This document shows positions 7,920 through 62,800 of a DNA stretch of 64,000 bases, piece after piece. Location: positions 1 to 64,000 of the forward strand of contig JAWLHK010000014.1 of the NCBI GenBank assembly GCA_041690355.1, given 5' to 3'. The position numbers were made by a program, and so were the translations under genes. Below the pieces are notes generated by a model. It was not told the origin of the DNA. It saw nothing but the letters and a program-made list of their open reading frames with translations, and made no database searches. The first letter of the stretch is position 1; each line of letters starts with the position of its first letter. The DNA is from a bacterium (GTDB lineage Bacteria; J088; JAWLBW01).

Positions 7920-8015
7920 GTTCGTCTCCTTTTCAGGCTGTCGTATTGTCGAATGCTACAGGGTAATCGGCGCCGCCGATCCGCGCAAACCCCCTTGGCG
8001 GTCTCTTTGCCGAGG

Positions 8016-10585: not shown

Positions 10586-10601
10586 GGCCTTCGCTTCTCT
10601 C

Positions 10602-18838: not shown

Positions 18839-18964
18839 TGGATACCCTTCGTTTCTATACCAAACCACTGTGAGCGGTCATGCGCAAGCTCGCCGGAACG
18901 ATCGGTCACGCGGCGTGCATCCTCATCGTTGCCCCATCGGGTGACAAAGGGATATACTCGCAGG

Positions 18965-20386: not shown

Positions 20387-20401
20387 TCGGGAACTGTCTG
20401 C

Positions 20402-46296: not shown

Positions 46297-46312
46297 TCCC
46301 CGGGTTCCACCC

Positions 46313-46975: not shown

Positions 46976-46992
46976 TGTATATTATGTCAACT
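46965..46992 (+). other. dif site (XerC/XerD chromosome dimer resolution site)
   Basis: TTGGCGCATAA-TGTATA-TTATGTCAACT versus E. coli dif GGTGCGCATAA-TGTATA-TTATGTTAAAT; KOPS-like octamers converge here. Confidence 0.9.
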
Positions 46993-47094
46993 TTACCGGA
47001 ACCGGAAGGCGCGCCTTTTCCGGCCTGATTCCGGCCGGCGCGGTTTCCCCTCATTTTCCTGGTCCTGAAGTTCCGGCGTCCCCTTCGGGTACCC

Positions 47095-48189
47095 TCAGGG
47101 AACGTGAATCCGGTAGAGACTGCCGAGGTTCGTCAACGCGAAGAGCCCTGCGCCGCGACGTTCCGGTGCCGCCGAGAAGCCCGAGACGGCCCGGTCATAA
47201 CGCCACCGGAGCGTTCCCGCTCTGCCGTCGACCTCGCCGACTCCGCCGGCGGCGTCGGTAAAGAAGACGCGGCTCCCCTCCATGATCGGACGATTGATCC
47301 ACGTACGTGTCACCGGCACGGTCCACAGATTGCGACCCGTAGCCGGATCGAAGGCCTTGAGCTCGCCGCTCAACGTGCCCACGACGAGCCGGTCTCCGGC
47401 GACGGCCGGCGCCTCGTGTGAAACGACCGGTTCCGACCAGATCATGTTGCCCGAGGCGGCGTCCATGCAGAGCAGCCGCGAGCCGTAGACGACGACGTAG
47501 ACCCGGTTGCCCAGGATGACCGGGGTGGAATCGATGTCGGTGAAGCGCGCGGCCTCACCCGTCCAGCGCTGGCTCCACTCGACCTGCCCCGTCGCCCCGT
47601 CGAGGCGCACCACCGCGCCGTCGGAGAAGCCGGTCAGCACGTCACCCTCGAAGACGGTGGCGCCGGCCGCGCCGCGGATGCTCAACTGCGGATCGTCGCC
47701 GCGCGCATACTGCCAGCGCCATTCGCCTGAGTTCCGGTCGAGCGCATAGACCTGATTGTTGCCCGTCGTCACGAAAAGGCGGTCTTCGTGGGCGGCCGGG
47801 CGTCCGAGCACCTCGTGGCCCGTGAAATACCGCCACCGCACGTCGCCGTTCTGCGCATCGAGCGCGAAGACCGAACCGGTGACGGTACCCAGGTAAAGCG
47901 TATCGCCCACGAGCAGCGCATCGGCCTCGACGGCCCCGCCCAGGGCGCGGCTCCAGACCCGATTGCCGTGCAGGTCGTAGGCGAAGGCCGTCCCTTCGCG
48001 CGTGCCCACGTAAATCCGATCGCCGCCGCTGACGGGCGCCGACCGCTGCACCGGATTCCAGGGAAGCATGATGCGGTCGAAATCGAGCGGCCGCACCCAA
48101 TGGATGGCATACCGGGGGAATTCGGCCGCAAAGGCGATCGCTCCACCGAGCAGGAGAAACGCCAGGATGGCCAGAGAGGTGCGCCGCAC
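47095..48189 (-). CDS. PQQ-like beta-propeller protein, BamB-like
   Basis: Repeated A-L-D-x-x-x-G-x-x-x-W blades, FTDIDSTPV; signal peptide without a lipobox Cys; follows a YfgM-like gene. Confidence 0.8.
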   Translation of the reverse strand: MRRTSLAILAFLLLGGAIAFAAEFPRYAIHWVRPLDFDRIMLPWNPVQRSAPVSGGDRIYVGTREGTAFAYDLHGNRVWSRALGGAVEADALLVGDTLYLGTVTGSVFALDAQNGDVRWRYFTGHEVLGRPAAHEDRLFVTTGNNQVYALDRNSGEWRWQYARGDDPQLSIRGAAGATVFEGDVLTGFSDGAVVRLDGATGQVEWSQRWTGEAARFTDIDSTPVILGNRVYVVVYGSRLLCMDAASGNMIWSEPVVSHEAPAVAGDRLVVGTLSGELKAFDPATGRNLWTVPVTRTWINRPIMEGSRVFFTDAAGGVGEVDGRAGTLRWRYDRAVSGFSAAPERRGAGLFALTNLGSLYRIHVP

Positions 48190-48203
48190 GGGATTCAGCT
48201 TTT

Positions 48204-48857
48204 TCAGGGCCTGGTCGTTTCGGAAACGGCAGCCGCCGTCGCTTCACGCACCACGCGGTTGCGTTCGAGATAGACCTGCACGCGGCCGATGTCGCTCGCG
48301 AGCACCGAGGCATACGGGCTGACGTCGACGGCGTTGGCGCGCTGATAGTAGTCGAGGGCGCGTTCGTAATTGCGCATCGCCTCCCACGCCTTGCCGGCCT
48401 GCATCAGCGCCATGCTCTTGAACGAAGGCTGCGACTCGAAACGCTCGGCCGCTTTCTGAAACGCGTTGGCCGCCTCTTCGAAGCGGTTCAGGCGGTAGTA
48501 GGCGTCGCCGACCGACACGAGCGCGAGCGACGCGGCGTCGGTGTTGCGGTAATTCTCAAAATAGGCCTCGAGCTCGCCGACGACCTTCTTCAACCGTTCG
48601 GCGCGCTCGGCTTCGGGGGCCTGCACGGCCTGGTCGAGCGTCTCGGCCAGTCGGGCGTACTGATAGCGGGCCTCTTCCTGCTTGGATTCGGCGTAGTAGC
48701 CGTAGCCCAGGCCACCCGCGGCCACGAGCACGACGATGAGCACGATGCCCACGACCGAAGAGGCGTGCCCGCGAACCCAGTCGAACACGCGGTTCATGGT
48801 CGTCTGAAACGTATCGGGCTTCTTGATGTCGTGGCGGGTCAGTCGTTTTTCGCTCAT
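48204..48857 (-). CDS. YfgM-like membrane-anchored TPR protein
   Basis: LTRHDIKKPDTF N-terminus, single TM, TPR helices. Confidence 0.8.
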   Translation of the reverse strand: MSEKRLTRHDIKKPDTFQTTMNRVFDWVRGHASSVVGIVLIVVLVAAGGLGYGYYAESKQEEARYQYARLAETLDQAVQAPEAERAERLKKVVGELEAYFENYRNTDAASLALVSVGDAYYRLNRFEEAANAFQKAAERFESQPSFKSMALMQAGKAWEAMRNYERALDYYQRANAVDVSPYASVLASDIGRVQVYLERNRVVREATAAAVSETTRP

Positions 48858-48881
48858 GCAGCAACCAGGGGAAAAACAATC

Positions 48882-48910
48882 ATTCTAGTGAGGACTTCAA
48901 GCAAAGTCAA
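48882..48910 (-). promoter_or_regulatory. Sigma70-type promoter of the yfgM-like/bamB-like pair
   Basis: Minus strand TTGACT-N17-TAGAAT. Confidence 0.6.
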
Positions 48911-48922
48911 CGCCTTATCCCA

Positions 48923-49184
48923 ATTGACGATTTACGATTGACGATTGACGATTTGCCGGAAAGGACTTGGGGGCGCCTGTCCTTGCTGCGTTGGTGCTTG
49001 GCACTTGGTTCTCGAAGTGACGAGTGACGAGTGACGAGTGACGAATTTCGGCAGGGGCTGGAACCTGTGCCCTTTCTTCTTCAGCGCTTGGCGCTCGGTG
49101 CTTGGCGCTTCACCCGCGACGGGTGACGAATACAAGCGCAGGTCCCTTGCCGCTCAGGAATCAGGAATCAGGAATTAGGAATTG
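48923..49184. repeat. Composite repeat region: ATTGACG x5, degenerate 85-bp-family units with AGTGACG x4, TCAGGAA x4
   Basis: Arrays at 48923-48957, 49016-49046 and 49154-49184; CAGCGCTTGGCGCT shared with the 34368 repeat. Confidence 0.85.
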
Positions 49185-49205
49185 CAGTAGGGTACAATCT
49201 CACGG

Positions 49206-49814
49206 ATGCGTTTTCCGTCCGGCCGGCTTCCGGCATTCCTCTTCGGTCTCGTGTGGCTTACCCTTGCCCTGCCCGCCTCAGCGCTTGCCGAGGATGAGGA
49301 GGACAAGGATTGGACGGCGCTCGCCAAGGCCGCCCACGCGCAACTGACGACACGCCCGGCCGACCCCGATCTCCTCAACCTGAGCGGATACCTGCACTTC
49401 CGCGCGGGCGTCACCGACGTCGCCTACCGCGCCTACCGCGCCGCGATCAAGGCCCGCCCCCGGTTCGCCGTGGCGTGGAACAATCTGGGCGTCCTCCTCA
49501 TGCGGCAGAAGAAATATGAGGAAGCCGAGATCTGCTTTCGCCGGGCGCTCGAGATCGACAAGCGCTACTCAAAGGCGCGCTACAATCTGGCCGTTTCCCG
49601 GTTCCGCCAGGGCGCCTATCGAGAATCGCTCTTCATGTACCTGGATCTGCGTGACGACGACCCCGAATACACGAACGTGCGCACGAATCCCCTCAAGGCA
49701 GAAGAAGAGCTCGACGCCGCACTCGCCGCCGATCCCGACAATTTCTTCCTCAAGCAGGTGCGCAAACGGGTGAAGAGCGAGGCCCCGCGCCCCGTCTCGG
49801 CGCCGGCACGCTGA
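49206..49814 (+). CDS. Exported TPR protein
   Basis: Signal peptide (ALA); AWNNLGVLL and ARYNLAV TPR consensus. Confidence 0.85.
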   Translation: MRFPSGRLPAFLFGLVWLTLALPASALAEDEEDKDWTALAKAAHAQLTTRPADPDLLNLSGYLHFRAGVTDVAYRAYRAAIKARPRFAVAWNNLGVLLMRQKKYEEAEICFRRALEIDKRYSKARYNLAVSRFRQGAYRESLFMYLDLRDDDPEYTNVRTNPLKAEEELDAALAADPDNFFLKQVRKRVKSEAPRPVSAPAR

Positions 49815-49837
49815 TCATCCGTCATCCCGCAGCCGCT

Positions 49838-49981
49838 TCATCCCGTACTCAGTCGGTAACGCCCTCTGTAACTGCGCAAGATATCATACCCATGGCTCGC
49901 GCCGAGGATCTCGAGTCCTGTACGGATCGTGGCGGTAATTCCTTGGCCCGTTGCCTCCTGGGCCTTCTGGAGAACGTCCAC
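49838..49981 (-). pseudogene. Possible type II antitoxin (VapB-like) remnant
   Basis: VDVLQKAQEATGQGITATIRTGLEILGASHGYDILRSYRGR resembles RHH-type antitoxins; N-terminus and RBS unclear; no toxin adjacent. Confidence 0.4.
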
Positions 49982-50007
49982 CGGTGGGCAGCATGAGTTC
50001 TCGGTGG

Positions 50008-51420
50008 TTACTCCTCCAGCGACCATTCGAGCAGCGGCAGGCGCAGGGTCGCGTCCTCGAGAGACTGGCGGAACCGGCCAAGCCGGCGCGCGTTGAAGCG
50101 GTCGGCCGAGACGGCGGCCCCGTAGACATTGCCCAGATAAAAGCTCGAGCCGATCGTCGCGTAAAGGGCCGTGGTCGTGTAGGCCCAGCCGCGATGCGGG
50201 CGTGAAGCCAGATCGCGCCCCTTGAGCCACGCGTCCCAGGTCAGCAGCCCGAACAGCGCGTTCACACCGAGCGAAGCCGCCGCCTCGCCCCAGTGGCCCG
50301 TGTAGGCCTGCCCCGCGCCCGGCAATACAGCACTGAGGAGCGCGGCCGCCGAGCGGCTTCTGCGGGGGATGTCGCCCCCCTGCCCGGCCTTCTCCGCGAG
50401 TTCCGTCAGAATGGTGCGGGTCTCCGGCGCGAGCGATTCGTCAGCCGCGATTCCCCCAAAGATAGCGGCCGCGTCGGAATATCGCGCCGTATGAAGGAGC
50501 GCAAGCGCGCGATACAGATCCCGCTCGGCGGCGATGCCCGCGTGGATTCCCGGCCGGCGCGGCGTAAGCGCCTCGGCGGCCAGCGCGTAGCGGCCGGCGA
50601 GGTAGTGCGCCTCGCCGATGCGCAGGGCGGCAAGCTCGGAGAGAAGGCCGGCGCCGTCGACCGCCTCCTGATAACTGAGAATGGCCGTGTCCCACTGGCG
50701 CGCCCCGGCATGCGCGTCTCCGGCCCGCAGCCATGCGCGCAGGGCCGTCGGTCCGGTCGCAAGCAGGGCCGCCTCCATGAAGAGCGTGGCCGCGCGATAC
50801 CACTCTTCCCGTGCCAGGAGCGCCTCGCCGAGCGCCATGCGGCGTTCCACGGTTTCCCCTGCTGCGGAGGGAATGTCCGGATCCGTCTGCGGGCGGGCCG
50901 AAGGCGGCATCGGGGACGCCTGTGCAAGCAGCATCCCCTCCGCGTCGCGCGGAACGGCGGTCTCGCGCGGTTCCTCACCGAATAACCAGTTGTCCTCGGG
51001 CGGATCCCAGGCGCGCAGGGCGCCAACACGGATCAGACGGAAATGTCCGCTCTCGAGAATCCCCGGATACTCGCGGGTCAACCGCGAGGCCGTCATGAGC
51101 ACGCCCCAGCCGGGGCCGTACCGGTTCACGGCCTCGCGCGCAAACTGCGAACAAGTCGGGTAGTGCGGACATTTCGGACCGTCGATCGGCGATAGAACGT
51201 CGCGGAAGACATCGAGGAGAAAGCCGAATCCCTGACGCAGCGCGTCCGGGCGTGCGTGGATGTCGTCGCCGGGCCGACCCGCGCGCAGCCGCATGGAAGG
51301 CGGATTCTCGTATTCCCATGGGTCTTCGGCGCGTGCGTCCGAAGCAGCCAGTGCAAGGAGCAGCAGGGCGGCCGGGAGGCGGCCGGCGAGAGCGGAACCG
51401 GGTTTGAGGAGGAACGCCAT
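50008..51420 (-). CDS. Exported fusion: YidD-like domain + TPR + PGAGQ membrane module
   Basis: Signal peptide (ARA); SPIDGPKCPHYPTCSQFAREAV; TPR helices; LLSAVLPGAGQAYTG...FYLGNVYGA. Confidence 0.85.
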   Translation of the reverse strand: MAFLLKPGSALAGRLPAALLLLALAASDARAEDPWEYENPPSMRLRAGRPGDDIHARPDALRQGFGFLLDVFRDVLSPIDGPKCPHYPTCSQFAREAVNRYGPGWGVLMTASRLTREYPGILESGHFRLIRVGALRAWDPPEDNWLFGEEPRETAVPRDAEGMLLAQASPMPPSARPQTDPDIPSAAGETVERRMALGEALLAREEWYRAATLFMEAALLATGPTALRAWLRAGDAHAGARQWDTAILSYQEAVDGAGLLSELAALRIGEAHYLAGRYALAAEALTPRRPGIHAGIAAERDLYRALALLHTARYSDAAAIFGGIAADESLAPETRTILTELAEKAGQGGDIPRRSRSAAALLSAVLPGAGQAYTGHWGEAAASLGVNALFGLLTWDAWLKGRDLASRPHRGWAYTTTALYATIGSSFYLGNVYGAAVSADRFNARRLGRFRQSLEDATLRLPLLEWSLEE

Positions 51421-51511
51421 CGTTACATTCTAGTAACGAGGGGGCCGCCCCATCAACCAAAACCACATTGTCGCCGCATACTTGAGCCGTATTGGGCCCA
51501 CTGCCCTTTTC

Positions 51512-51541
51512 TTGACAGAGCGCCAAGCGAAGTGCTAGTAT
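51512..51541 (+). promoter_or_regulatory. Putative promoter of the lolA-like unit
   Basis: TTGACA-N18-TAGTAT with TG extension. Confidence 0.4.
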
Positions 51542-51564
51542 GCCCCCTAACCTGTGCACGCCTG

Positions 51565-52368
51565 ATGGTTTACCGTAAGCGTATTCTCGCCGCCTTTCTT
51601 TTCTCCCTTTTCGTGACGAGTGTTGCGGGTTCCGCCGCGGCCGCCGACGAGGCGACCTCGCGTGCGACCGCCCTCATGGAGAAGGCCGCGGCCAACTTCG
51701 ACCGGATTCAGACCATTCGCGCCTCCATCGATCAGGTGCTGTCGGCCCGCGGCGGCGGACAGCGCTTTCAAGGAGTTTACGTCGCGGCGGCGCCGGCGCG
51801 TTTCCACATCGAATATCAGTATCCGTACCGGCAGCAGGTGGTGAGCAACGGAAACGAACTCTGGTGGTATATTCCGCAGAGCAAGAAAGTCTGGTTTTCG
51901 AACGGCGTGACGAGTCTGACGAATTCCCCCGAAGCGATGGGGGGACAGACCTTCGGCTCCCTGGGGTTCGAGAACATCGACCTCGCCCCGCAGTCTGACG
52001 TCGTCTACAAGCTCGAAGACAGCCTTCTCTCGCAGCTGAGGGGCAAGTGGAAAATTGAATTTGAGGGGACCGGTTCGGCGCAGGGCATGCGCGGAACGTT
52101 CTGGCTGGATCGCAAGAGCGGTCTGCCGCTGGTGATTGAAATTCGGGATGACAAGGGCGAAGTCACGCTGCGTCAGACCTTCGAAGATTACGAGCTCGTG
52201 AACCAGGTTTCGGTCCCCACCAACGTCTTGATCGAAGTACCGCGCTACAAGGTGTCCATCCAGGTGCGGTATGCCGATATCAAGATCAACCAGCCGGTTG
52301 ATGATCGGGAATTCCGATTTGCACCCCCGGCAGGGGTGCCTGTTGTACCTCTAACAAGTGCCATGTAA
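51565..52368 (+). CDS. LolA-like periplasmic carrier protein
   Basis: Signal peptide; PARFHIEYQYPYRQQVVSNGNELWWYIP; C-terminal FRFAPPAGV. Confidence 0.85.
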   Translation: MVYRKRILAAFLFSLFVTSVAGSAAAADEATSRATALMEKAAANFDRIQTIRASIDQVLSARGGGQRFQGVYVAAAPARFHIEYQYPYRQQVVSNGNELWWYIPQSKKVWFSNGVTSLTNSPEAMGGQTFGSLGFENIDLAPQSDVVYKLEDSLLSQLRGKWKIEFEGTGSAQGMRGTFWLDRKSGLPLVIEIRDDKGEVTLRQTFEDYELVNQVSVPTNVLIEVPRYKVSIQVRYADIKINQPVDDREFRFAPPAGVPVVPLTSAM

Positions 52369-52378
52369 GGAGAAAACG

Positions 52379-52879
52379 ATGAATTTGTTCCGGCGTTTTG
52401 CCGCTACGTTCGCCATCGTAGTCGGCGTTCTTTTCGCGGTTCAGACGGTTGCTCTGCCTGTCGCCCAGGCTGAGCTCAACAAGGCCAGCGTCGTCAACGT
52501 GCAGAGCGATGACGCTCCGAGCCCGGTGATTGCCATCATCCTGGCCATCATCCTGCCCGGCGCGGGCCACCTGTATGTCGGCAAGGCCGGCACGGGCATC
52601 CTGATCCTCGCCCTCTGCGTCGTCAACTGGTGCCTCATTTACTGGGTGCTCGCGGTTCTGACGATCTGGGCCGGTGGCGTCGGCGGCTGCGTTGCCCCGA
52701 TTTTCCACCTCATCCTCGTGATCTGGGACGCCTGGGGCTCCTACAACATCGCCAAGAAAAAGGGCGGTGCGGGTGACCTCGAAGACGTCGAGCGCAAGAC
52801 CAAGCGCGCTCTGGAAGACGAAGACGAAGAGGGTATGCTCCACAACCCGTTCGTCCGTCCGGCCGCCGTCGTCTTCTAA
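52379..52879 (+). CDS. Small exported membrane protein with PGAGHLY (TM2-like) module
   Basis: TAAGGAG RBS; signal peptide (AQA); IAIILAIILPGAGHLYVGKAGTG; acidic C-tail. Confidence 0.85.
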   Translation: MNLFRRFAATFAIVVGVLFAVQTVALPVAQAELNKASVVNVQSDDAPSPVIAIILAIILPGAGHLYVGKAGTGILILALCVVNWCLIYWVLAVLTIWAGGVGGCVAPIFHLILVIWDAWGSYNIAKKKGGAGDLEDVERKTKRALEDEDEEGMLHNPFVRPAAVVF

Positions 52880-52902
52880 GACGATTTCAGCCTGAAGACT
52901 CG

Positions 52903-52932
52903 AGAGCCCGCCCACGTGGCGGGCTCTTTTTT
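52903..52932 (+). terminator. Rho-independent terminator
   Basis: AGAGCCCGCC-CACGT-GGCGGGCTCT followed by a T run. Confidence 0.88.
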
Positions 52933-52958
52933 GCCCTTTTTCTGTGTTTTATCCCTTG

Positions 52959-54392
52959 ATGCTCACCGCTCTCGCCCTTTACGCCCTGCTCGCCGCGCCG
53001 GATGTCGTCGTGCACGGCGCCGCGCCCGAGCGCGCCACCGCCGCCACCGCCGTCGTTGCAGAGGCCCTTGAGAGTCCGGCTGATCTGACCGCGGCGACGC
53101 AGAAGCTCGTCGAGTGGTATGCGCGGGCCGACTTTCCGATGGCCCACGTCTACGGCGCCGCGTTCACCGGCGGCGCCCTGCGTCTCTACGCGTCGGAAGG
53201 CACCATCGCGGCGCTCAACTGGCAGGGGCTTCCCGATGGGTGGATCGGCTGGCTCGAGGCGCGCATGCCCGCGCAGCTGGCCGTCGGCGAACCCGTCCGT
53301 CAGCAGGTCGTGGCCGAAGCGCTGCGCACGCTGCGCGCCCTCCCCTTCGTGAAAGACGCGCGGATTGCACCGGAAATCGAACAGCAGCGCGGCCAGGCAG
53401 CCCGCATCGCCTTGAACGTGACCGTCGAGCGCATCGAGGCCGCCAACCTCATCGATTTCTGGGTCGACTCGGTCGGCGCCGGGTTCGAGCAGGACTACAG
53501 CCAGATCGGTACGCTGCGCCCCTGGATCGGCGTGCAGAACGAACTCGGCGTGCAGATCATCCGCATCCCGTCGCCCGACCTGACCCCCGGCTTCTTCGTG
53601 CGCACCGAACAGTTCTTCGGCAAGAGCGGCGGCGTCGATCCGATTCCGTTGCTCGAGACCGGCCTCGGCACGGCCATCGACGCCGGCTGGCGCCTCCCGC
53701 GCCGTGACATCGGGCGCCGCTATGACGTGCGCTCGCTGTCTGTGTTCATCCCCTTTCGCCTCGGCGCCGACGCCTGGCGCGCCGAGTTCTCACCGTACTA
53801 CGAGTGGACCGTCTTTACCGGCGACGCGCTCGCCGGACCGGAGACCGTCAATCACCTGGCCGGGCGCTTCAGCCTGGGTGACCCGCCGCCCGGTATCGCG
53901 GCCCGCACCGGAGGCGCACCGGCGCCTGCCGTGGGGATCGAGGCGATCGCCGTCTTTCAGGGAGACGAGCCCTATTGGCGGGCCACCGGCGCGTTCTCGC
54001 GCAAGTGGAACCCGATTGGCCGGCAGGAGGTGCAGGTTTTTGCCGAAGCCGGCTGGCTCGACGGTTCGCCCGTGTTCCTGCGCGAATTCAGCGTCGGCGG
54101 TCTCGACACCCTGCCGGCCTATCCCGAGCAGTACCGCTTCGGCCGCCGCTTTTTCACCGGCGGCGCGCGGTGGTTGCCCCAGTTCGGGCCGAAAGGGATC
54201 AACGGGTGGCTCGGCATCGAAGCGGGCGACGCCTGGTCGGGCGCATACCCCGGAGATCCGCTCGTCGAGGCCTCGCTCGGCATCGAGGTCGACATCCGCG
54301 TGCTGCGCGTCTGGATCGCCGTGGCCCAGCCGCTGCGCATCGAACGCTCGCCGACCCTCAACTTCCGTCTGATTACCGTCTCTGACCGGTAG
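52959..54392 (+). CDS. POTRA + beta-barrel outer-membrane protein (Omp85/TpsB-like, divergent)
   Basis: POTRA-like LVEWYARADF...LRLYASEGTI and GEPVRQ...LRALPFVKDARI; amphipathic strands; FSVGGLDTLPAY in the lid-loop position. Confidence 0.7.
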   Translation: MLTALALYALLAAPDVVVHGAAPERATAATAVVAEALESPADLTAATQKLVEWYARADFPMAHVYGAAFTGGALRLYASEGTIAALNWQGLPDGWIGWLEARMPAQLAVGEPVRQQVVAEALRTLRALPFVKDARIAPEIEQQRGQAARIALNVTVERIEAANLIDFWVDSVGAGFEQDYSQIGTLRPWIGVQNELGVQIIRIPSPDLTPGFFVRTEQFFGKSGGVDPIPLLETGLGTAIDAGWRLPRRDIGRRYDVRSLSVFIPFRLGADAWRAEFSPYYEWTVFTGDALAGPETVNHLAGRFSLGDPPPGIAARTGGAPAPAVGIEAIAVFQGDEPYWRATGAFSRKWNPIGRQEVQVFAEAGWLDGSPVFLREFSVGGLDTLPAYPEQYRFGRRFFTGGARWLPQFGPKGINGWLGIEAGDAWSGAYPGDPLVEASLGIEVDIRVLRVWIAVAQPLRIERSPTLNFRLITVSDR

Positions 54393-54428
54393 CCCCCTGC
54401 CCTGCGGGTTGCTAGACTGTACCGAGCG

Positions 54429-54950
54429 ATGCTACCTTTCCGCCTCCTGTCTCTGCCGCAGGCCCTGCTGCTTCTCGTCTGCCTTGCGCTCGCGGCGCCC
54501 CGCCCCGCCTCGGCCGGCGAGCCCCTGCGGCCGCGGCTCGAAGACACCGCCGCCAAACCCGGAGCACGCGGACCAACCCCCGCGACGGCCCTTCTGCTCG
54601 GCCTCATGTTGCCGGGATGCGGCCACGCCTACGTCGGGCGGCCGGGAACGGGCATTCTCCTCTTCCTCATCTGTTCCGCCAACTGCATCGGGGTCTTTGT
54701 CATCGCCACCCTGATGCTGTCGCTCATTTCACTCTCGTGGCTCGCGCTGCTGACCGCGGTCGCCATCCACTGCTGCCTGGGGATTTTCGACGGCCTTCGC
54801 GCCTACACGATTGCACAGCGTAATCTGGAGAAATGGCCCGACCAGCCGCGCGACCCCCGCCTGCAAGGCGAAGAGCTCGAGGCCCGTCTCGTTCCGGCCG
54901 AACCGTTCGGACTGCCGCAGCGGCCCGTTTCGCTTGCGGTCATCCCTTGA
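54429..54950 (+). CDS. Paralog of 52379..52879 (PGCGHAY module)
   Basis: Signal peptide; LLLGLMLPGCGHAYVGRPGTGILL...FDGLRAYTIA aligns with PGAGHLYVGKAGTGILI...WDAWGSYNIA. Confidence 0.8.
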   Translation: MLPFRLLSLPQALLLLVCLALAAPRPASAGEPLRPRLEDTAAKPGARGPTPATALLLGLMLPGCGHAYVGRPGTGILLFLICSANCIGVFVIATLMLSLISLSWLALLTAVAIHCCLGIFDGLRAYTIAQRNLEKWPDQPRDPRLQGEELEARLVPAEPFGLPQRPVSLAVIP

Positions 54951-54969
54951 AGCAGGTACCCTGAGCCCG

Positions 54970-55422
54970 ATGCGTTTCTTCTTCTCTGCCGCTCGCCAAG
55001 CGGATGTGCGCCCCGCCGGCGCCTCGTCCGACTCGACGCGCCGTCTGGCGGCCGCCGTCCTGATCGCCGCGACCTTGCTCGCGCCGGCCGCGGCGCAGGC
55101 CGAGGGCTGGCCTGAACTCAAGCCCGAGGCGCGTCAAGCCTCGACGACAGGGAGCAGTTCGCCGTTTTCGGCGTTCGGCGTCACCCTCATCCGTTTTTAC
55201 CAGCAGGTCATCTCGCCGCTCGACGGCGACACCTGCGGGTTTCGCCCCGTGTGTTCTGCCTACGCCCGGGAGGCCGTTCGCGAGCACGGCTTTCTCGTCG
55301 GTTCGCTGATGGCCGCCGATCGGCTCGAACGCTGCAATCCCTACAATCACATGGCGCACTACCCCGTCGACCCCGACGGCTATCTGCACGACGACGTCGA
55401 CGAGAACGCCCTTTTCCGCTGA
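54970..55422 (+). CDS. YidD-family protein with signal peptide
   Basis: IRFYQQVISPLDGDTCGFRPVCSAYAREAV...GSLMAADRLERCNP; AQA cleavage motif; start uncertain. Confidence 0.85.
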   Translation: MRFFFSAARQADVRPAGASSDSTRRLAAAVLIAATLLAPAAAQAEGWPELKPEARQASTTGSSSPFSAFGVTLIRFYQQVISPLDGDTCGFRPVCSAYAREAVREHGFLVGSLMAADRLERCNPYNHMAHYPVDPDGYLHDDVDENALFR

Positions 55423-55429
55423 GTTACCG

Positions 55430-56338
55430 ATGCGCCTGTTCCGGACCGTGCCGGTTGCGGCCCTTCTGTTCCTGTTGCTTTCTGCACGTGCGCATGCGCA
55501 GCCGGCCGCCGAAACGCCGGCCGTCGCCTGCCCCTCGTGCTCATTCGAGGGAACCCGCGCCTTTGCCGATCAGCTTTTTGCCGACGGCGACTACTTTCGC
55601 GCCATCGGTGAGTACAAGCGGCTCGCCTGGTTCGCGAAGACTCCCACCGAGCAGAGCTATCCGGTCCTGCGCGTGGGCCAGTCGCTGCTGAAAGCCGGCC
55701 GGCCGGCCGAAGCTGCGGGCTGGCTGCGGGAGTCGGGCTCGACGCTGGGCGATGAAACCGGCCGCGCCCGCGCGCGCTGGCTCGAGGCCCGTGCCTGGTA
55801 TGAAGCAGGGCGTCTCGATGACGCGCGTATGGCGAGCACCGCCCTCGCCGGCGATGCCGTTCTGGGCTCGGCCGCGCGCCGGATGGGCGCGCTCGTCGCC
55901 GTCGCCGAAGATGATGCGGGCGAGGCGCTGCGCCTGGCCGGAGACGACCCGGTGGCGGTTTCCGGCGGATTTCCGCTCCTGCTTGAAGAGCGGGTTCCGC
56001 CCCGCGCGCCGTCGCCGGTGGTCGCCGGCCTGCTCGCGGCCGTTGTTCCGGGCAGCGGCCACCTGTATGCCGGTTCGCCGGGCGACGCCGTCTATACGTT
56101 TCTGCTCAACGCCGCCTTTTTCGGCGGCACCTGGTATCTGGCCTCGCGCGGCTCAACCGGCGGCGCCATCGCCGTGGGGAGCATCGGCGCGCTCTTCTAC
56201 GGCGGCAACATCTACGGGTCGGTGAACGCCGCCAAGCGGGCCGAAGAGCGCTGGCGCACCGAGACCGTCGAGCGGGCCGATCGGGCCCTGTTCCCGCGCT
56301 CCATCGGCGCCTCCTTCGACGTGCCGCTGCCATGGTGA
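55430..56338 (+). CDS. Exported TPR protein with PGSGHLY membrane module
   Basis: Signal peptide (AHA); FADQLFADGDYFRAIGEYKR; AGLLAAVVPGSGHLYAG...FYGGNIYGS. Confidence 0.85.
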   Translation: MRLFRTVPVAALLFLLLSARAHAQPAAETPAVACPSCSFEGTRAFADQLFADGDYFRAIGEYKRLAWFAKTPTEQSYPVLRVGQSLLKAGRPAEAAGWLRESGSTLGDETGRARARWLEARAWYEAGRLDDARMASTALAGDAVLGSAARRMGALVAVAEDDAGEALRLAGDDPVAVSGGFPLLLEERVPPRAPSPVVAGLLAAVVPGSGHLYAGSPGDAVYTFLLNAAFFGGTWYLASRGSTGGAIAVGSIGALFYGGNIYGSVNAAKRAEERWRTETVERADRALFPRSIGASFDVPLPW

Positions 56339-57201
56339 GCACCGTCCTTCTCGCTCTGGCCCTCGTGGCGCAGGGGCCGGCCGGCGCCCCTGCACCGACA
56401 AACCTCGCGGTGCGACAGCTCGAATTCGCCGAGGACCTGTCTGCCCGGGGCGACGACTTCAGCGCGATCACGGAGTTCCGGCGCGCGCGCTTCTTCTATC
56501 CCGCACTGGCGACCGCGGCCGAGCGCGGCCTGGCGCATGCGTCGCTGCGTTCGGGTGACTTCCGTCACGCCCGGGTGCACGCGCGATCGGCCGCCACCCT
56601 GAATCCGGCGATCGCCGACGAAATGGGGTATGTGGAGTGGCTGGCCCTGGCCGCCGACGGCCTGCAGACCGAGGCCGACCGTCAGTGGCGGCTACTCGCC
56701 ACCTCGCCCGTCACCACCACTGCCGCCCAGGCGCTGCTCGCACGCGGCGTGCTCACCCTGCGGCACGGCGCGCTTCCCGAAGCGGCGAGCTGGCTCGGCC
56801 GCGCGTCCCGGACGGCCCCGGGAACCGCGCTTGGCAACACGGCCGCGTCCATGCAGGCGGCGATTCCCGCCGAGGTTCCCGAGAAGTCCCAGATCGTGGC
56901 CGGACTGCTGGCCATCGCCATCCCCGGCGCCGGACAGATCTACGGCGGGCGAACCTGGGAAGGGCTGGGAAACTTCGCGTTGACTTCGCTCTTCGTCTAC
57001 GGCGCCTACAACAGCTGGCGCAACGACGGCCGGTTCGAGTTCTGGCTGCTGCCGGTGGCGGCGGTCTATTTCGGCGGCATCTCCCGCTCGGCCGCCCTGG
57101 TCTCCCAATACAATGAACGGGCGAAACACGACGCGGGGGCCGCCGTCGTCGACGCCCATCTCGCGCCGTTGTCGGCGGCGGGATTCCGGCATTTGCCGTA
57201 G
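56332..57201 (+). CDS. Exported TPR-like protein with PGAGQIY membrane module
   Basis: Overlaps the upstream stop; FAEDLSARGDDFSAITEFRR; AGLLAIAIPGAGQIYGG. Confidence 0.85.
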   Translation: MVSTVLLALALVAQGPAGAPAPTNLAVRQLEFAEDLSARGDDFSAITEFRRARFFYPALATAAERGLAHASLRSGDFRHARVHARSAATLNPAIADEMGYVEWLALAADGLQTEADRQWRLLATSPVTTTAAQALLARGVLTLRHGALPEAASWLGRASRTAPGTALGNTAASMQAAIPAEVPEKSQIVAGLLAIAIPGAGQIYGGRTWEGLGNFALTSLFVYGAYNSWRNDGRFEFWLLPVAAVYFGGISRSAALVSQYNERAKHDAGAAVVDAHLAPLSAAGFRHLP

Positions 57202-57214
57202 CCGCCGCGCGGCC

Positions 57215-57545
57215 ATGGCCGATGGCCGATGGCCGATCATTCCGTTGCCCGATTTCCCCATTCCCATACCCATCCCCGATCCCCGGGGCCCTGCCCCGGG
57301 CTGAAAGCCCGGCGTCCCTTCAGGACGCCAAGGTTGCCGCACGGTTATCCGGTGCATCCGCGGTTTGCGCTCCCGATGGTGACAAGCGGAAACGTGCCGC
57401 GTCCCTTCAGGACGCCAGGATTGCGGCACGGATATCCGGTGCATCCGCGGTTTGCGCTTCGCCCATTGTGACGACCGGATATCGCGGCACGCTTGTCTCG
57501 ACTGCGACTCTGGACGCTCGACGCTCGACTCTGGACTCTAGACTT
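57215..57545. repeat. Repeat-rich intergenic region: ATGGCCG x3, REP-like hairpins, ~87-bp tandem duplication, GAC[TG]CT[GCA] x5
   Basis: CCGGGCT-GAA-AGCCCGG at 57296-57312; units starting GCGTCC-CTTCA-GGACGC at 57312 and 57399; heptamers at 57215-57237 and 57506-57545. Confidence 0.85.
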
Positions 57546-57607
57546 CGGGCGGCATTGCAGACCGCTTTACGGGCGGGCTATGATATGGGACCTTTTCGCA
57601 AAACCCC

Positions 57608-59866
57608 ATGTCGACCTCTGCGTTATCCGCCTTTCCGCTTCATGAAGCTTTCGCCCGGCTGCCCGTGCCGTGCGTCGTTCTTCGCGGGCGGTTGATCGAG
57701 TTCGCGAACGAGCGTTTTCTCTCTCTGGCGGGGCTGTCTTTCGCCGAGGCGCTCGGGCTCCCGTTCACGAAAGGGCTCGCGCCCGCCGATGCGGCACGAC
57801 TCGAGGCTCTTCAGGGGACGCCCGCCGAAGTGCGCTTTACGACCCCCGTCGGCTGGCTCAAGGACACCGCGCCGGCGTTTGAAGTCGTCATCACGCCCCT
57901 TGACGGCGTGCGCTCGCTGCTTACTCTGCTCGCACAGGACCCGGCGCCGATGCAGGTCCCAACGGAGCGTCACCATGCCGACACCGACCTGCGCGAACGT
58001 GAAGAGCGGCTCCGGCTCGCGCTGCAGGCCGCAGACATCGGCATCTGGGACTGGAACATTCGCGACAACACCATCCGGCGCTGGGGCGGCGAGGCGGCGC
58101 GGTACGGGCGTCCCGCCGAGGCGACCGGCACGTTCGAAACCTTTCTGAACGTCATCCACGCGAAAGATCGCGATCGCGTGCGCGAAGCCATCGAGGCCGC
58201 CGTACAGACCGGGGTGGCCTACGATATCGAGTTCCGTTCGGTCTGGGCCGACGGATCCATCCATTGGGTGCACTCCAAAGGGAACGTCCTGCGCGATGCC
58301 AAGGGCGCCCCCGTGCGCATGCTGGGCTACATCCGCGACGTCACGCGGCGCAAGCAAGAACAGAACGCGCTGGCCGAAAGTGACGCCCGGCTGCGGCTCG
58401 CCATCGACGCGACCGGCATCGCCCTCTGGGACTGGAATCTCAAGACCGGGCGCGTCGATGTCTCGCTGGGGGCCGAACTGATCTTCGGCAAGACCCTCGA
58501 GGGGATGGATAACGATCGTTTCATGGAGTTCATCGCGCCAGAAGATCGCCGTCGCGTCGTGCGCGAGGTTACGCAGATCATACTCGGCGGCGCCGGCGTG
58601 CTCGAGACCGAATACCGCCTGCAGGTGGGCAACCGCTGGGTGCGCACGCACGGCCGCATCTTTCGCACGCCCGAGGGTACCCCCGTGCGTGTGCTCGGCT
58701 ATACGCTCGACATCACGCACCAGAAGGAGCACGAGCGCGAGCTGCTCGCCGCCAAGGAGGCCGCCGAGGAGGCCAGCCGGCTGAAATCTTCGATCCTGGC
58801 CAACCTCAGCCACGAGATCCGCACGCCGATGACGGCCATTCTCGGATTTGCCGAGCTGCTCGAGCACAAGCTGGCCGGCTCGTCGCTGCAGGGGGACGCG
58901 CGCATCATCCGCAACGGCGGAAAACGGCTGCTGCACCTGCTCAACAGCATCATCGACCTGGCGCGCATCGAGGCCGGACGCATGCCCTTCGAGCCGACCC
59001 GCCATGATCTGGCGCAGACGGTGCAACGGGTCATCGGCCTGTTCGGCCAGCGCGCCGCCGAAAAAGGGATCGACCTGCGGCTGGCCGCCGAGGCGGGAAC
59101 CATGGTCTTCACCGACAGCAGCGCCGTCGAGCAGATCGTCACGAACCTCGTCAGCAACGCGATACAGTTTACCGAACGGGGGCACGTGACGGTTGGGGCC
59201 TGCCGCCAGGGCGAACGGGGCGTGGTGCGGGTCGCCGACACGGGAATCGGCATTACAGCCGAGTTTCTCCCCTATCTCTTCGATGAATTCCGCCAGGAGT
59301 CCGAAGGGATGGGCCGGCGGTACGAAGGGAGCGGGCTCGGGCTCGCCATCACGCGCAAGCTCATCGATCGGCTCGCCGGCACCATCGAGGTGCGCAGCGA
59401 GAAAGGGGCGGGCACCACGGTAACCATCACGTTTCCCCTGGCCCGGAACGCCGACGACGTTCCCGAAGGAGCCGTCGACTCGGCCGGCGCGCCGTCGGCA
59501 GCCGCCTTGGCCCGCAGCGTGCTGGCCGTCGACGACGACCCCTCCTGCGGGTCGTTGGTCGAAGCGGCCCTCGACGGCCACCGGGTCATCTGGTGCGAAA
59601 CCGCCGAGGCGGCACTCGCGCTAGCCGCGCAGACCCGCTTCGATATCGTGCTGATGGATATCCACCTGCGCAAAGGCGAGATGGACGGCATCGAGGCCAT
59701 GCGGCAACTGCGCGACATGCCGGCGTACGCAGAGTCACGAATCGTCGCGCTGACCGCCTACGCCATGAAGGGCGATCGAGAGATGTTTCTCGAACAGGGC
59801 TTCAGCGATTATCTGGCCAAGCCGTTCGAGCCGGCCGCGCTCCGGCAACTGGTCGATCGGGATTAA
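57608..59866 (+). CDS. Hybrid PAS sensor histidine kinase / response regulator
   Basis: PAS/PAC blocks; SHEIRTPM; DTGIGI, GSGLGL; REC domain VDDD...LMDIHL...LTAYA...LAKP. Confidence 0.94.
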   Translation: MSTSALSAFPLHEAFARLPVPCVVLRGRLIEFANERFLSLAGLSFAEALGLPFTKGLAPADAARLEALQGTPAEVRFTTPVGWLKDTAPAFEVVITPLDGVRSLLTLLAQDPAPMQVPTERHHADTDLREREERLRLALQAADIGIWDWNIRDNTIRRWGGEAARYGRPAEATGTFETFLNVIHAKDRDRVREAIEAAVQTGVAYDIEFRSVWADGSIHWVHSKGNVLRDAKGAPVRMLGYIRDVTRRKQEQNALAESDARLRLAIDATGIALWDWNLKTGRVDVSLGAELIFGKTLEGMDNDRFMEFIAPEDRRRVVREVTQIILGGAGVLETEYRLQVGNRWVRTHGRIFRTPEGTPVRVLGYTLDITHQKEHERELLAAKEAAEEASRLKSSILANLSHEIRTPMTAILGFAELLEHKLAGSSLQGDARIIRNGGKRLLHLLNSIIDLARIEAGRMPFEPTRHDLAQTVQRVIGLFGQRAAEKGIDLRLAAEAGTMVFTDSSAVEQIVTNLVSNAIQFTERGHVTVGACRQGERGVVRVADTGIGITAEFLPYLFDEFRQESEGMGRRYEGSGLGLAITRKLIDRLAGTIEVRSEKGAGTTVTITFPLARNADDVPEGAVDSAGAPSAAALARSVLAVDDDPSCGSLVEAALDGHRVIWCETAEAALALAAQTRFDIVLMDIHLRKGEMDGIEAMRQLRDMPAYAESRIVALTAYAMKGDREMFLEQGFSDYLAKPFEPAALRQLVDRD

Positions 59867-59898
59867 GTTCCCTTCTCCCGCAGCGGCTACTCACGCCC

Positions 59899-62800
59899 TT
59901 ACGGGCACGCCGTTTCGGTGTTCGAGAGCGCCGCAGACCAGCCCTCGATGGCGGTGCCGTTGATCCAGACGTTGACGTACTTCTGGTTCGCGTTGGCGCT
60001 CATCTGCGGAATCAGCAGATCGAAGGTCAACGTACCCCCGCTGAAATAGGCCGTCGTGTCAGTCGGCGTCTGCCCCACGACCCGAAGGACCGAAGGATTT
60101 ACGTTCTCGTACCGCGCAAACAGGTTCCACGTCGGCTGGGTGCTGTCGCCCCAACGCACCCGCACCTGACCCGAGAAGTTGGCGGCGTCGACCCCCAACG
60201 CGTCGACCTTCACCGCGTACGTGCAGTTGAGTCCCACGGCGGTGCGCGCAGGTTGAAAGGCGAAGGCGAAGCCGGTAATCGTCGACGCCTGCACCTGAAT
60301 GGCCGACGAACGCCCGCGCTCGGTCAGGGCGCCGCCGGTGCCCACCTGGCTCGAGATAATCTGGATCGTTCCGTTCGCGGGGCCCTCGACGGCGACCTTC
60401 TGCGACAGGACGCCCGAGCTGAAGTTTACGCTCGTGGTCGGCCGAACGGCGTACCCGAGCACGCTCGACGTGAAGCGCACCTTGTCGTTGAACGACGTCA
60501 ACACATCGCCGAACTGATCCCGTGCAGTAATCGTGATGGCCCGGTCGACGTAGCCGGGCCACTGGGCAGGTATCGTGCCCCACTCCATGGCGGTGAGGGC
60601 GCGGTCTTCGACCGTGAATTCCTGCGAAACGCCCTGCTTGCCGAAAAAGTCGACGGTCAGCCGGTCGAGCGCGGCGTTGCCCTGGGTAAAGGTGATCTGG
60701 GCCTCGAGCACGCCGCCCGAGAAGCCGGCAAGCAGCGTCGGGTTCGTCGAGAGCGTATCGAACCGGTTCGTCACCTTGACCACGCCGTCAAAACCGTCAA
60801 CGACGCCGCCATCCACGTCTCTCGCGGTGATGGTCACGTTGACGAACGAGTCGGCCGGGACCTTGCCGGGAATCACCTCTTCGACCGCGACATCGAAATG
60901 GTGCAGCGATCCTTCGACGACAATGGGGCCGACGGTAACGCGCGAACCGTAGCCGTTGTCGATGAAGACGTATTCCTGCGGGGCCTCGCTCTCGAACAGC
61001 AGGGACTGCGTGCGCGTACCGGCCGCAAACGCGCCCGTGACCGCGACGCCGTTGTCACTGAGAAATCCGCACGAGTACGCAGTCGAACCGTCGGCGCAGA
61101 CCGTGCGCACCGCGCCCGTCGTGCTGGTGACCTGCAGCGAGCCTTCAAAGTCGGCGTCGGGCACCCCGCCCGTCGTCACGGCGAGGTCGAGCGCGAAGCG
61201 CTCGCCGACCTGAACAATGGTGGGCCAGGTGCTTGCCGTCGAAACCGTGTGCGCAACGCTGCTCAGCGTGGCCACGTCGGTTACGGCGTCGTAAAAGACT
61301 GAATTCCAGGTCGTGCGGTACCGCAGACGCGTCGTGTCGCCGCCGCCGAAAGCGAAGCGCAGCTGCGTCCGGGCAACCCCTTCGACGAAATCGACGCCGT
61401 TCGGGTCGAGCGGATTTCCGAAGACATCCGCCAGGGGCACGCCCGCTTCGTTGAAGTCACGCTTGATGTTACCGTAGGCATCGCGGGCCACGGCGCAGAA
61501 GTTGAAGAAATTGAAGACGCGCACGGCGCCGGGCAGCGCGTCGCCGCAGGGGCCGCCGGTATACTCGACGGCGGCCACCGGACCATAGACGACGGCGAAC
61601 GTCGCGGGGAGCGAATAGCCGCTGTGTCCGCGCCCGTCATGCAGGTAGAGATATTCGGCCTGGGCCTGCGACGTGAAACCGATCCGCAGGGGCAGATAGG
61701 TGTTCGTGCAGTTGGCGATGTTGGCCTGTTCGAGGCAATACCGCAGCTCGCCCTGCTCGTCGCTGAGCACGCGCGCGGCGGTCGACCAGGCGCCATCGGG
61801 CAGCACGAAGCGCCCCGACCCCGTTCCGGAATTCAGATAGATCCAGCCCAGCGTCTCGCCGGTGAAGAGGTTGCCCCCCGCATCGAGGGCCGTAACCTCC
61901 AGATCGTGCGCTTCGCTTACATGAAGCACGTTCGGAAAGAGGTCCATGCCGAGACTGAACTTGGCCAACTGTCCCGAGAAGACGGGAAACGGATCGGAGC
62001 AGCCGATCGCCCCCGCCCCGGATACGCACACGCGCGCAGAATCCGTAATCCGGTCGATGTAGGCCTCCTGCCCCATGAGGGCGCCGTTCAGGAACGGGGC
62101 CGTGGTCAGGGCCGGATACATCGTGCCCGTCGTATCGCTGATGCTGGCCCGGTAGTTGAAGGTCGTGGCCGGAGCACAGGGGCCCGAGACGGGATCGTCG
62201 GCACAGGCCACCGCCGAGAAGGTGAACGGCACGTGAGCGCGGACCTGCGTCGACGGCACGGTCACCTGGAACTTGACGACATCGGGCGGCACCAGATCAA
62301 ACGCGTTGGTTTCGTCCTGGAGACCCACCGTGCCGCAGTCGGCCACGATGGATGTGCGCACCGGATAGGCATCGGCGGTGAACCAGACGTCGACTTCGAG
62401 GCCGGGCTTGTCGGTCAGACTCAGGGGCGCCCCTTCGACGTGAAGCGTAGCGAGCGCGCTGCCCGAGGTCAACGCGAGATTGTTGCAGAGGATGTTGTCG
62501 GTAACGTTCCCGAACTCGTCGATTGGTTCCACGCGTACACGAATCAAGTTCGGGCTCGCTGGGTTCAGGGTCAGCCGCTGCGGCGTACCGAGGGGGTTGA
62601 TGCGCAGCGACTCGGCGTGCGCGCTGCGTACGACGAAGGGGCTGCTCAGATTGCCTTGCGGAGAGATGCTGCTGGTGGCCAGCGGATTCGCGGCCACCCG
62701 CGCATTTCCCGACGGCCGGGTCGCCCGCACGGTGACGAAGCAGTGGCTTTCTTCGCCGGGGATCTGGATGGTCGTGCCGAAAATCGGGTCGACGAAGGTG

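Follow-up and report, generated by a model that had tools for sequence, protein, structure and literature searches.

In a 64,000-nucleotide stretch of bacterial DNA (contig JAWLHK010000014.1 of assembly GCA_041690355.1, positions 1 to 64,000; hereafter the window), we analysed a cluster of eight adjoining genes at positions 50,008 to 57,201, numbered here g1 to g8 from left to right. The conserved part of this cluster is a predicted trio of an exported YidD-like protein (Y) and two tetratricopeptide repeat (TPR)-hairpin proteins (A and B), which the window holds as g6-g7-g8 together with a fused Y-A copy, g1. Our preferred explanation, with a probability of about 40%, is that a conserved but undescribed envelope module of three genes has been elaborated locally to give this cluster; in the module, Y and the TPR proteins would form a complex handling hydrophobic cargo. 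The genes of the trio and the fused copy are the following:

50008-51420, minus strand: g1, fused Y-A copy with a putative signal peptide, a YidD-like domain, a TPR arm and a PGAGQAY...FYLGNVYG hairpin
54970-55422, plus strand: g6, free, putatively exported YidD-like protein, the Y of the trio (PF01809, TIGR00278), with a hydrophobic N-terminus ending in AQA
55430-56338, plus strand: g7, A-type protein with a putative signal peptide, a TPR arm and a PGSGHLY...FYGGNIYGS hairpin (phmmer, alignment A5)
56332-57201, plus strand: g8, B-type protein with a putative signal peptide, a TPR arm, a PGAGQIY hairpin and a degenerate RFYxGN (phmmer, alignment A6)

The trio was traced by scanning a g1-type Y-A alignment over one genome per species, which returned 68 loci; their architectures were determined by phmmer with the window proteins and by motif scans, and their lineages are named as in the record titles. 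In 59 of the 68 fetched loci, one or more A/B-type genes adjoin a YidD domain or are joined to it in a single gene; since the search patterns drew on Y as well as A, this share is not an unbiased rate. With T denoting a TPR-hairpin gene, the 59 comprise 27 Y-T-T, 14 YT-T, 15 Y-T and 2 YT loci and one double trio; several of the Y-T loci do hold a third gene that was missed by phmmer (L070, and Treponema loci with a downstream PGxG ORF). The remaining nine are four T-T loci (three truncated by the start of the contig; L051 with fragments alone) and five with YidD alone, namely three short Firmicutes proteins (70-89 amino acids, aa), one 179-aa open reading frame (ORF) from Peribacteria and the 400-aa ORF of L060 from Ignavibacteriales. 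The 59 loci come from Ignavibacteriota, WOR-3, Bacteroidota, Treponema, Latescibacterota, Coatesbacteria, TA06 and Desulfobacterota. Y and A form a single gene in g1 and in 14 loci, and fused YidD-TPR-hairpin homologs of g1 share 27-30% identity with it at 80-87% coverage. Fusions of Y with A, and of Y with both A and B, tie the predicted parts of the module together. An earlier sequence-only reading of this DNA had linked YidD to TPR/PGxG proteins, a link now borne out by conserved adjacency and repeated fusion. Furthermore, an A profile was run against 201 sampled genomes of the Ignavibacteriota phylum, with at most 12 candidates per genome scored; 30 genomes matched at E ≤ 1e-12, the hairpin was reached in 25, and an adjacent A-B pair was present in 22. 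Taken with the YidD counts from five other trio genomes (see below), this sample indicates that the module is real, ancient and patchy.

Among individual loci, L032 from Latescibacterota (6594-8789) encodes a single 731-aa protein with YidD, the A motif and the B motif, i.e. a fusion of the whole trio. L065, from a Bacteroidetes metagenome-assembled genome, carries two full Y-A-B trios (9941-12073 and 18392-20424) about 6 kb apart, whose YidD domains fall at different positions in the YidD tree. In L031 (12108-13463) and 18-19 more loci of Ignavibacteriota type, the trio is followed on the same strand by a LemA gene and a TPM-domain gene; LemA and TPM-domain proteins are envelope-associated families of unclear role. 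By clustering and Pfam, the neighbours of the other trios are housekeeping genes that differ between lineages (acyl-CoA dehydrogenase, LemA, TPM, V-ATPase E and others).

The sequence-only reading had also proposed that all eight genes begin with signal-like N-termini, that five share a PGxG[HQ]xY motif, that three have TPR-like arms, that one YidD-like domain is free and one fused, and that a LolA-like gene is embedded among them. All of these proposals held. The eight ORFs are present at 50008-57201 in the ORF list of the window, and each N-terminus contains a 19-residue stretch with a mean Kyte-Doolittle (KD) value of at least 1.65. Six of the eight end, by eye, in an AxA-type site (ARA, AAA, AQA, ASA, AQA and AHA), with g4 and g8 weaker; the export signals were judged from hydrophobicity and by eye and are putative signal peptides throughout. 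PG.G[HQ].Y was counted in all six-frame ORFs of 60 aa or longer, 25,094 in total, of the 4.64-Mb genome; nine matches were found, compared to 2.2 predicted from residue composition. Five of the nine matches sit in the eight cluster genes, where 0.0011 would be expected, and chance clustering of the motif was accordingly dropped as an explanation. Three more ORFs of the genome contain PGWG[QH]xY (C2:239200-240828, C10:85300-86361 and C15:14445-15383).

Both YidD-like domains of the cluster pass the family cut-offs: g1 scores 48.3 bits and g6 74.3 bits against PF01809 (cut-off 27), and 51.3 and 80.1 bits, respectively, against TIGR00278 (cut-off 40). The C-x3-P-x-C-S core, read from the alignments, is kept in both, and g6 also retains the Cys of the later R-C motif (ERCNP). 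A sequence search of the PDB with g6 gave no match. To our knowledge, YidD is known solely as a minor cytoplasm-side helper of YidC; the canonical protein, as Yu and co-workers reportedly described it in 2011, has about 85 aa, lacks a signal peptide and acts with YidC at the cytoplasmic face. Such a copy is present in this genome. The check for a separate canonical yidD beside yidC, which the sequence-only reading had called for, found an rnpA (PF00825)-yidD-yidC (PF02096) locus on contig C4 with a 96-aa YidD of 103 bits, ruling out g1 or g6 as the sole yidD of the genome. Because this yidD and a housekeeping LolA (C1:294854-295357, 105 bits) are both present, g1, g6 and the LolA-like g2 are extra copies. 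Compared to canonical YidD, exported copies such as g1 and g6 have signal-like N-termini and N-terminal extensions, score 46-76 rather than 90-111 bits, and are encoded with or fused to TPR-hairpin proteins, far from yidC.

The same pairing of copies recurs elsewhere. Five of five other trio genomes, from five lineages, contain exactly two YidD proteins, a short one of 90-111 bits and the trio copy of 46-64 bits, and a genome of the same family (G001, 97% complete) likewise has one canonical short YidD and one exported copy. In a YidD tree built from a short alignment (77 rows, 72 columns), the 10 canonical rows and four of the five lone rows, from loci without A or B, form one clade (support 99/91), and all trio-linked copies lie outside it in lineage clades; the fifth lone row, L060, falls within the Ignavibacteriota trio clade. 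g1 pairs with the copy of G001 (support 99/90), and g6 is placed outside the canonical clade at a position that is not resolved. In direct comparison, g6 scores 39 bits with g1 and 51 bits with the canonical copy; being no nearer to g1 than to canonical YidD, it is not the product of a recent duplication shared with g1. On these data, the extra YidD domains are putative exported-type paralogs distinct from the yidD beside yidC.

A side feature of these proteins lies between the signal peptide and the YidD domain. The Y proteins of Ignavibacteriota (L031-L058, e.g. L050 9812-10264) have a clear signal peptide and a conserved (Q)TDWxRWEK..Y at this place, and a similar Trp/acidic stretch stands just past the predicted cleavage site in g1 (EDPWEYE), in its G001 counterpart (WDPWDFE) and in g6 (EGWPELK).

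The partners of Y are of two kinds. By phmmer, g7 matches A-type genes in 63 loci (best E 7.5e-20), and g8 matches TPR-hairpin genes, mostly A-type, in 54 loci (best E 5e-15); g8 was called B from its position after g7 and from its alignment with B rows (alignment A6). The A signature reads PGxGK/Q/HxY...FYAGNVYGS, with P, G, G, Y and Y invariant in alignment A5, and the B signature PGxGQ/ExY...RFYxGNxxNA (alignment A6); A and B are separate conserved subfamilies. Pfam TPR matches in g1, g7 and g8 are all below cut-off, and the arm was recovered with confidence in an AlphaFold2 (AF2) model of g1 from a 46-row alignment. This model has a mean predicted local distance difference test value (pLDDT) of 79, with 90-97 over residues 190-460, 54-88 over the YidD part and low values in the linkers. 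It is predicted to contain, in order, a TPR solenoid, a short motif-bearing helix and a long hairpin, with helices at residues 355-364, 368-372, 376-405 and 409-458. Residues 185-351 superpose on TPR structures with Z 17.0 and a root-mean-square deviation (rmsd) of 2.1 over 159 aligned residues, many other TPR structures reaching Z 13-16. A Foldseek search of the PDB with the model gave nothing at E ≤ 0.001, generic TPR chains alone being returned, and a wide structure search with the whole 469-residue model found TPR chains alone while barely probing the YidD part and the hairpin. Complex prediction for g7 and g8 with alignments gave 0.28 against a mark of 0.32 and has no bearing either way.

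Gly, Ser, Tyr and Asn abound in the hairpin helices, whose hydrophobicity is only moderate: the best 19-residue KD has a median of 1.25 for A and 1.34 for B. In g1, the hairpin loop (KGRDLASRPHRG), read from the sequence, is basic and rich in Lys, Arg and His; it fits a cytoplasmic loop and gives a weak hint of an inner-membrane anchor. At E ≤ 0.01, 11 of the 35 A proteins and 7 of the 38 B proteins match DUF5683 (PF18935), and 5 and 2 of them, respectively, match TM2 (PF05154). The A/B unit shares with DUF5683, TM2 and DUF6677 (PF20382) a short hydrophobic-PGxGQxY entry motif. However, the window proteins and the L032 fusion remain below the DUF5683 cut-off (g1 scores 18.1 bits against 26.7), with about 25 of 151 profile positions, the motif alone, being covered, and the descriptions of the three families, whose function is itself undescribed, mention neither YidD nor a TPR arm. 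The hairpin unit is thus a putative, sub-threshold relative of DUF5683 and TM2.

The other features of the cluster are the following:

51427-51456, minus strand: promoter-like site 5' of g1, TTGATG-18-TAGAAT, 9/12, a consensus match alone
51512-51541, plus strand: promoter-like site 5' of g2-g8, TTGACA-18-TAGTAT with an extended TG, 10/12, a consensus match alone
51565-52368, plus strand: g2, putatively exported LolA-like protein, an extra paralog, above the cut-offs of three Pfam families
52379-52879, plus strand: g3, small, putatively exported membrane protein of 166 aa with LPGAGHLY, hydrophobic helices and a conserved C-terminal tail (from paralogy and KD)
52944-54392, plus strand: g4, orphan, putatively exported protein of 482 aa (or 477 aa) with weak Omp85 signals
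54429-54950, plus strand: g5, small, putatively exported membrane protein of 173 aa, a paralog of g3 (from paralogy and KD)

g2 to g8 lie on one strand with successive gaps of 10, 64, 36, 19, 7 and -7 nucleotides (nt), and g1 is divergent from them across a 144-nt spacer. The likeliest starts are ATG 51565 for g2, ATG 52379 after AAGGAG for g3, GTG 52944 or ATG 52959 for g4, and ATG 54970 for g6. Three sigma-70-like sites were found in 48800-58000, compared to 1.0 ± 0.9 in shuffled sequence, and two of them stand back to back in the g1/g2 spacer, one per direction. Terminator-like sites around the cluster show no excess (8 against 7.3 in shuffles), and an Rfam scan of 46000-60000 gave no match. 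Because of the 7-64-nt spacing, the common strand and the single promoter-like site, g2-g8 are probably co-transcribed as one compact envelope cluster. The G+C content is 0.59 in g2, 0.62 in g3, 0.68-0.71 in g4-g8 and 0.65 in the window as a whole.

LolA folds ferry hydrophobic cargo through the periplasm. g2 scores above the cut-offs of LolA (PF03548, 33 against 23.6 bits), LolA_like (PF17131, 31.4 against 30) and DUF4292 (PF14125, 29.1 against 23), and it also matches the LolB-type models DUF4292 and LolB1_Flavo. Unlike an established LolA/LolB carrier, it fails the LolA equivalog TIGR00547 (60.5 bits against 112), a better LolA exists in the genome, and neither lolCDE nor lolB was seen in the cluster. 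A link between the two folds was also found in Treponema, where in seven of seven loci Y is the C-terminal 70 residues of a protein of about 350 aa. An Atlas model of the N-terminal domain (residues 26-262; whole-protein pLDDT 0.63) superposes on a LolA cluster with TM-scores of 0.72/0.74, and, normalized by the query, on DUF4292 with 0.65 and 0.60 and on PF17131 with 0.63. These are the same three families that g2 matches. The models thus predict that a LolA-like fold is fused to an exported YidD in Treponema.

g3 and g5 are paralogs (E 1.5e-12), and g3 also matches g7 (E 6.8e-8). Their helices are strongly hydrophobic, with KD 2.1-2.5 (up to 2.48 in g3), and family models stay below cut-off (TM2 19.3 bits against 27.9 for g3; DUF6677 22.0 against 24.3 for g5). 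The two belong to a family of six in this genome, three other members standing in tandem at C4:40923-42403 and one at C10:40791-41462. The family layout consists of a signal peptide, xPxPxxALLLxxxLPGxGxxY, at least two hydrophobic helices, a charged linker and a C-terminal tail, ...RPxPVS(W/F).., which ends in SL, AL, GY, VF or IP and looks like a possible recognition tag. In the ORF lists around the four other paralogs there is no Y or A/B gene.

For g4, the sequence-only reading had proposed a POTRA-barrel gene; the barrel part gained weak but concordant remote signals for Omp85, whose members insert or translocate outer-membrane proteins, and the POTRA part, an impression gained by eye, found no family match. 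g4 has no Pfam or NCBIfam match at E ≤ 0.1 and none to a POTRA model, is not among the six genome matches to PF01103 at E ≤ 1, finds itself alone in a set of 5.8 billion proteins, and has no match in 40 relatives. Against 1.84 billion representatives, HMMER gave one marginal match (E 3.6e-4), in which g4 residues 344-454 align with residues 476-588 of a POTRA + Omp85 protein. A 25-sequence profile around that protein aligned by hhalign to g4 residues 338-435 over 97 columns (E 9.2e-5, probability 59%); the FvGG...DaGdaW blocks are kept in g4 (EAGDAW), and the slRGf position reads LDTLPAY, so that the loop-6 (V/I)RG(F/Y) motif is not found in g4 at the aligned position. Language-model features place g4 at 0.97 to Omp85 clusters, and its single-sequence AF2 model is unusable (pLDDT 32.7). 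Compared with Omp85 machines that work with TPR partners (BamA-BamD, TamA and Slam), g4 aligns to the conserved C-terminal barrel region and has TPR proteins and bamB encoded near its cluster, but it lacks a PF01103 match, slRGf and a POTRA match, and homologs for structure prediction were not found. Taken together, g4 is likely to be a divergent Omp85-type barrel. Five Omp85 proteins above cut-off are encoded elsewhere in the genome, and an Omp85 (PF01103, 63 bits) + DUF5982 protein lies within the window at 8016-9536 on the minus strand, 40 kb from the cluster.

The neighbourhood was compared with that in G001 and, for gene content, with three other genomes of the phylum (G002-G004), which have canonical YidD alone. 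The order in G001 is a large repeat protein, a 2-kb gap, Y, A, a TPR gene, a YfgM-like gene and BamB. These flanks recur in the window, where g2-g8 together with a hybrid histidine kinase separate the large protein from g1. The G001 ortholog of g1 is split into two genes, with a TGA and an 18-nt spacer in the same frame, and G001 as a whole yields two YidD matches and one full-length A/B-type match, the g1 counterpart. Because G001 has a gap at the same place and g2 and g3 are lower in G+C, the comparison suggests an insertion of g2-g8 and the kinase here or their deletion in G001.

The gene families, the conserved trio with its fusions, the canonical yidD at a separate locus and the operon-like layout are established, and the recurrence of BamB and a YfgM-like gene next to g1 in both genomes also speaks for the preferred explanation; the function and mechanism of the module are inferred. 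A and B would anchor in a membrane via their hairpins, with the TPR arms facing the periplasm, and would hold Y at the periplasmic face by fusion or binding. By analogy with cytoplasmic YidD, Y may ease hydrophobic segments, acyl chains or lipid-modified cargo into or out of the bilayer, and LolA-like proteins may deliver or remove that cargo. In this genome, the operon would add the carrier g2, the small proteins g3 and g5 and the barrel-like g4 as partners or cargo, and g4 may form the outer-membrane end.

Several results weigh against this explanation, in addition to the way in which the 68 loci were fetched. The module is patchy, being found in about 25 of the 201 sampled genomes of one phylum, so that a core housekeeping role of the trio is unlikely. 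The 25 commonest of the 139 families in 117 non-redundant flanking ORFs include neither a LolA nor an Omp85 family, and phmmer searches with g2 and g4 gave no match in any ORF of the 68 loci. With the queries used, g4 and g3/g5 were not found in G001 and g2 had a weak match there (E 9.7e-4), and across G001-G004 g2-g5 were not found beyond that match. The claim that the eight genes form a conserved system therefore fell for g2, g3, g4 and g5, which do not co-occur in other genomes; these genes are probably lineage-specific additions, and the eight-gene form is probably a one-off elaboration. On the LolA side, Pfam detected LolA_like and DUF4292 weakly in one of four Treponema Y proteins, and the profile of the Treponema N-domain had no significant hhalign match to g2 (probability 0.1%). 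Within the trio itself, just one A protein out of 35 and seven B proteins out of 38 reach a KD of 1.6, and because the hairpin helices are so weakly hydrophobic, the membrane insertion and topology of A and B are uncertain; the B hairpin loops are acidic by eye; and g1 reads TREYP at the later R-C motif, without the third conserved Cys.

Part of this evidence would also fit a rather unlikely alternative, in which the trio stands by itself as a periplasmic scaffold anchored in the inner membrane, such as a trans-side Sec/YidC helper like PpiD-YfgM, and g2-g5 are unrelated neighbours. The neighbours of the trio vary by lineage, g2-g8 and the kinase do not stand between the same flanks in G001, the four other g3/g5 paralogs have no Y or A/B gene nearby, and g1 has bamB and a YfgM-like gene at its side. 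PpiD-YfgM, an ancillary complex of SecYEG (PDB 8zht), consists like A and B of membrane-anchored periplasmic TPR proteins, the anchoring of A and B being predicted, and the TPR arm of g1 can be superposed on YfgM (Z 15.7, rmsd 3.1, 162 aligned). This match, however, is no better than that to many TPR proteins and is at the level of any TPR solenoid; moreover, YfgM has an N-terminal anchor and a parvulin-type chaperone partner, whereas A and B combine a signal that looks cleavable with a hairpin at the C-terminus, and their partner is YidD-like. The tight one-strand spacing of g2-g8 with its single promoter-like site favours co-transcription, the LolA-like-YidD fusion of Treponema links the two folds independently, and the PGxG motif is common to g3/g5 and A/B, all of which argue against unrelated neighbours. 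The Treponema fusion, found in seven of seven loci, in turn supports a LolB-like device, in which a LolA-like domain would take the acyl chains of lipoproteins or another lipid and a membrane-active YidD-like domain held by A and B would put them into a membrane. It would serve lineages without a classical LolB, and the trio lineages are not known to have one. g2 would suit such a device as an extra LolA-like paralog beside the housekeeping LolA, with matches to the LolB-type DUF4292 and LolB1_Flavo. Nevertheless, the trios of Ignavibacteriota, WOR-3 and Bacteroidota show no adjoining LolA-like partner, and a LolA-like fold also carries lipids other than lipoproteins. We consider this device improbable.

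The model put forward in the sequence-only reading assigns the parts differently: A, B, g3 and g5 would be alpha-helical cargo that crosses the inner membrane, is ferried by the LolA-like protein and is assembled by the Omp85-like barrel into an outer-membrane oligomer or pore, with exported YidD as an assembly factor. Export signals on all parts are consistent with it, as are the hairpin helices of A and B, most of which are too weakly hydrophobic for classical stop-transfer, and the conserved tail of g3/g5, which could be a recognition tag. PMC13744359 also lists a DUF5683 protein, PG0140, in the outer-membrane-vesicle proteome of P. gingivalis, with its location given as 'unknown'. Several lines of evidence oppose the model, however: the g3/g5 helices have KD values typical of inner-membrane proteins, the basic g1 hairpin loop fits a cytoplasmic loop, and A/B match DUF5683 below cut-off and over the motif alone. 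Furthermore, nearly all other trios lack both the barrel and the LolA-like gene, which means that elsewhere A and B are produced in their absence. This assignment thus appears the most doubtful.

The local elaboration of a Y-A-B module for hydrophobic cargo remains the reading that we prefer. Its known parts are YidD, TPR, the LolA-like fold and probably Omp85; apparently new are an exported YidD paralog with dedicated A and B, their fusions and the link to a LolA-like fold. In line with the sequence-only reading, which had called the system a candidate undescribed one, a literature search covering mostly non-subscription journals found no account of YidD in exported form, of an operon of YidD with TPR genes or of a fusion between LolA and YidD. 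An exported YidD with two TPR membrane proteins points to an unstudied role at the periplasmic face of the envelope in a number of phyla that are still poorly understood. The trio, as three small genes of which one can be fused, provides a handle on hydrophobic or lipidated cargo beyond the inner membrane, which is relevant to bacteria without the proteobacterial Lol and BAM accessory sets; the eight-gene form is useful chiefly as a pointer to possible partners. Much more speculatively, and with small odds in our view, Y with A/B could be an unrecognised envelope-biogenesis machine of the FCB (Fibrobacteres-Chlorobi-Bacteroidetes) group, spirochaetes and related diderms, which would be fed by LolA-like carriers, insert lipidated or helical cargo either on the periplasmic side of the inner membrane or at the outer membrane's inner face, and here, with its own Omp85-type barrel, constitute a second, non-BAM, non-Lol route to the outer membrane.

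Three genes beside g1, at window positions 47095-49814, encode BamB (PF13360, E 1.3e-49), a YfgM-like TPR_21 protein, two genes away from g1, and an exported TPR protein of 202 aa. In G001, all three recur after the Y-A pair (L097, G001:C370, 302-2805), indicating that this neighbourhood is older than g2-g8. On the other side, a hybrid kinase with PAS, HisKA, HATPase and receiver domains lies at 57608-59866; the segment 51565-59866, comprising g2-g8 and this kinase, takes the place of a gene-poor gap of about 2 kb in G001 (L013, G001:C118, 9558-11624). Next to the kinase, a very large protein is encoded at 59899-63942 on the minus strand (1347 aa here and 1757 aa in G001, L013 4285-9558). It has no Pfam match at E ≤ 0.001, is conserved between the two genomes and lies beside the Y-A locus in both.

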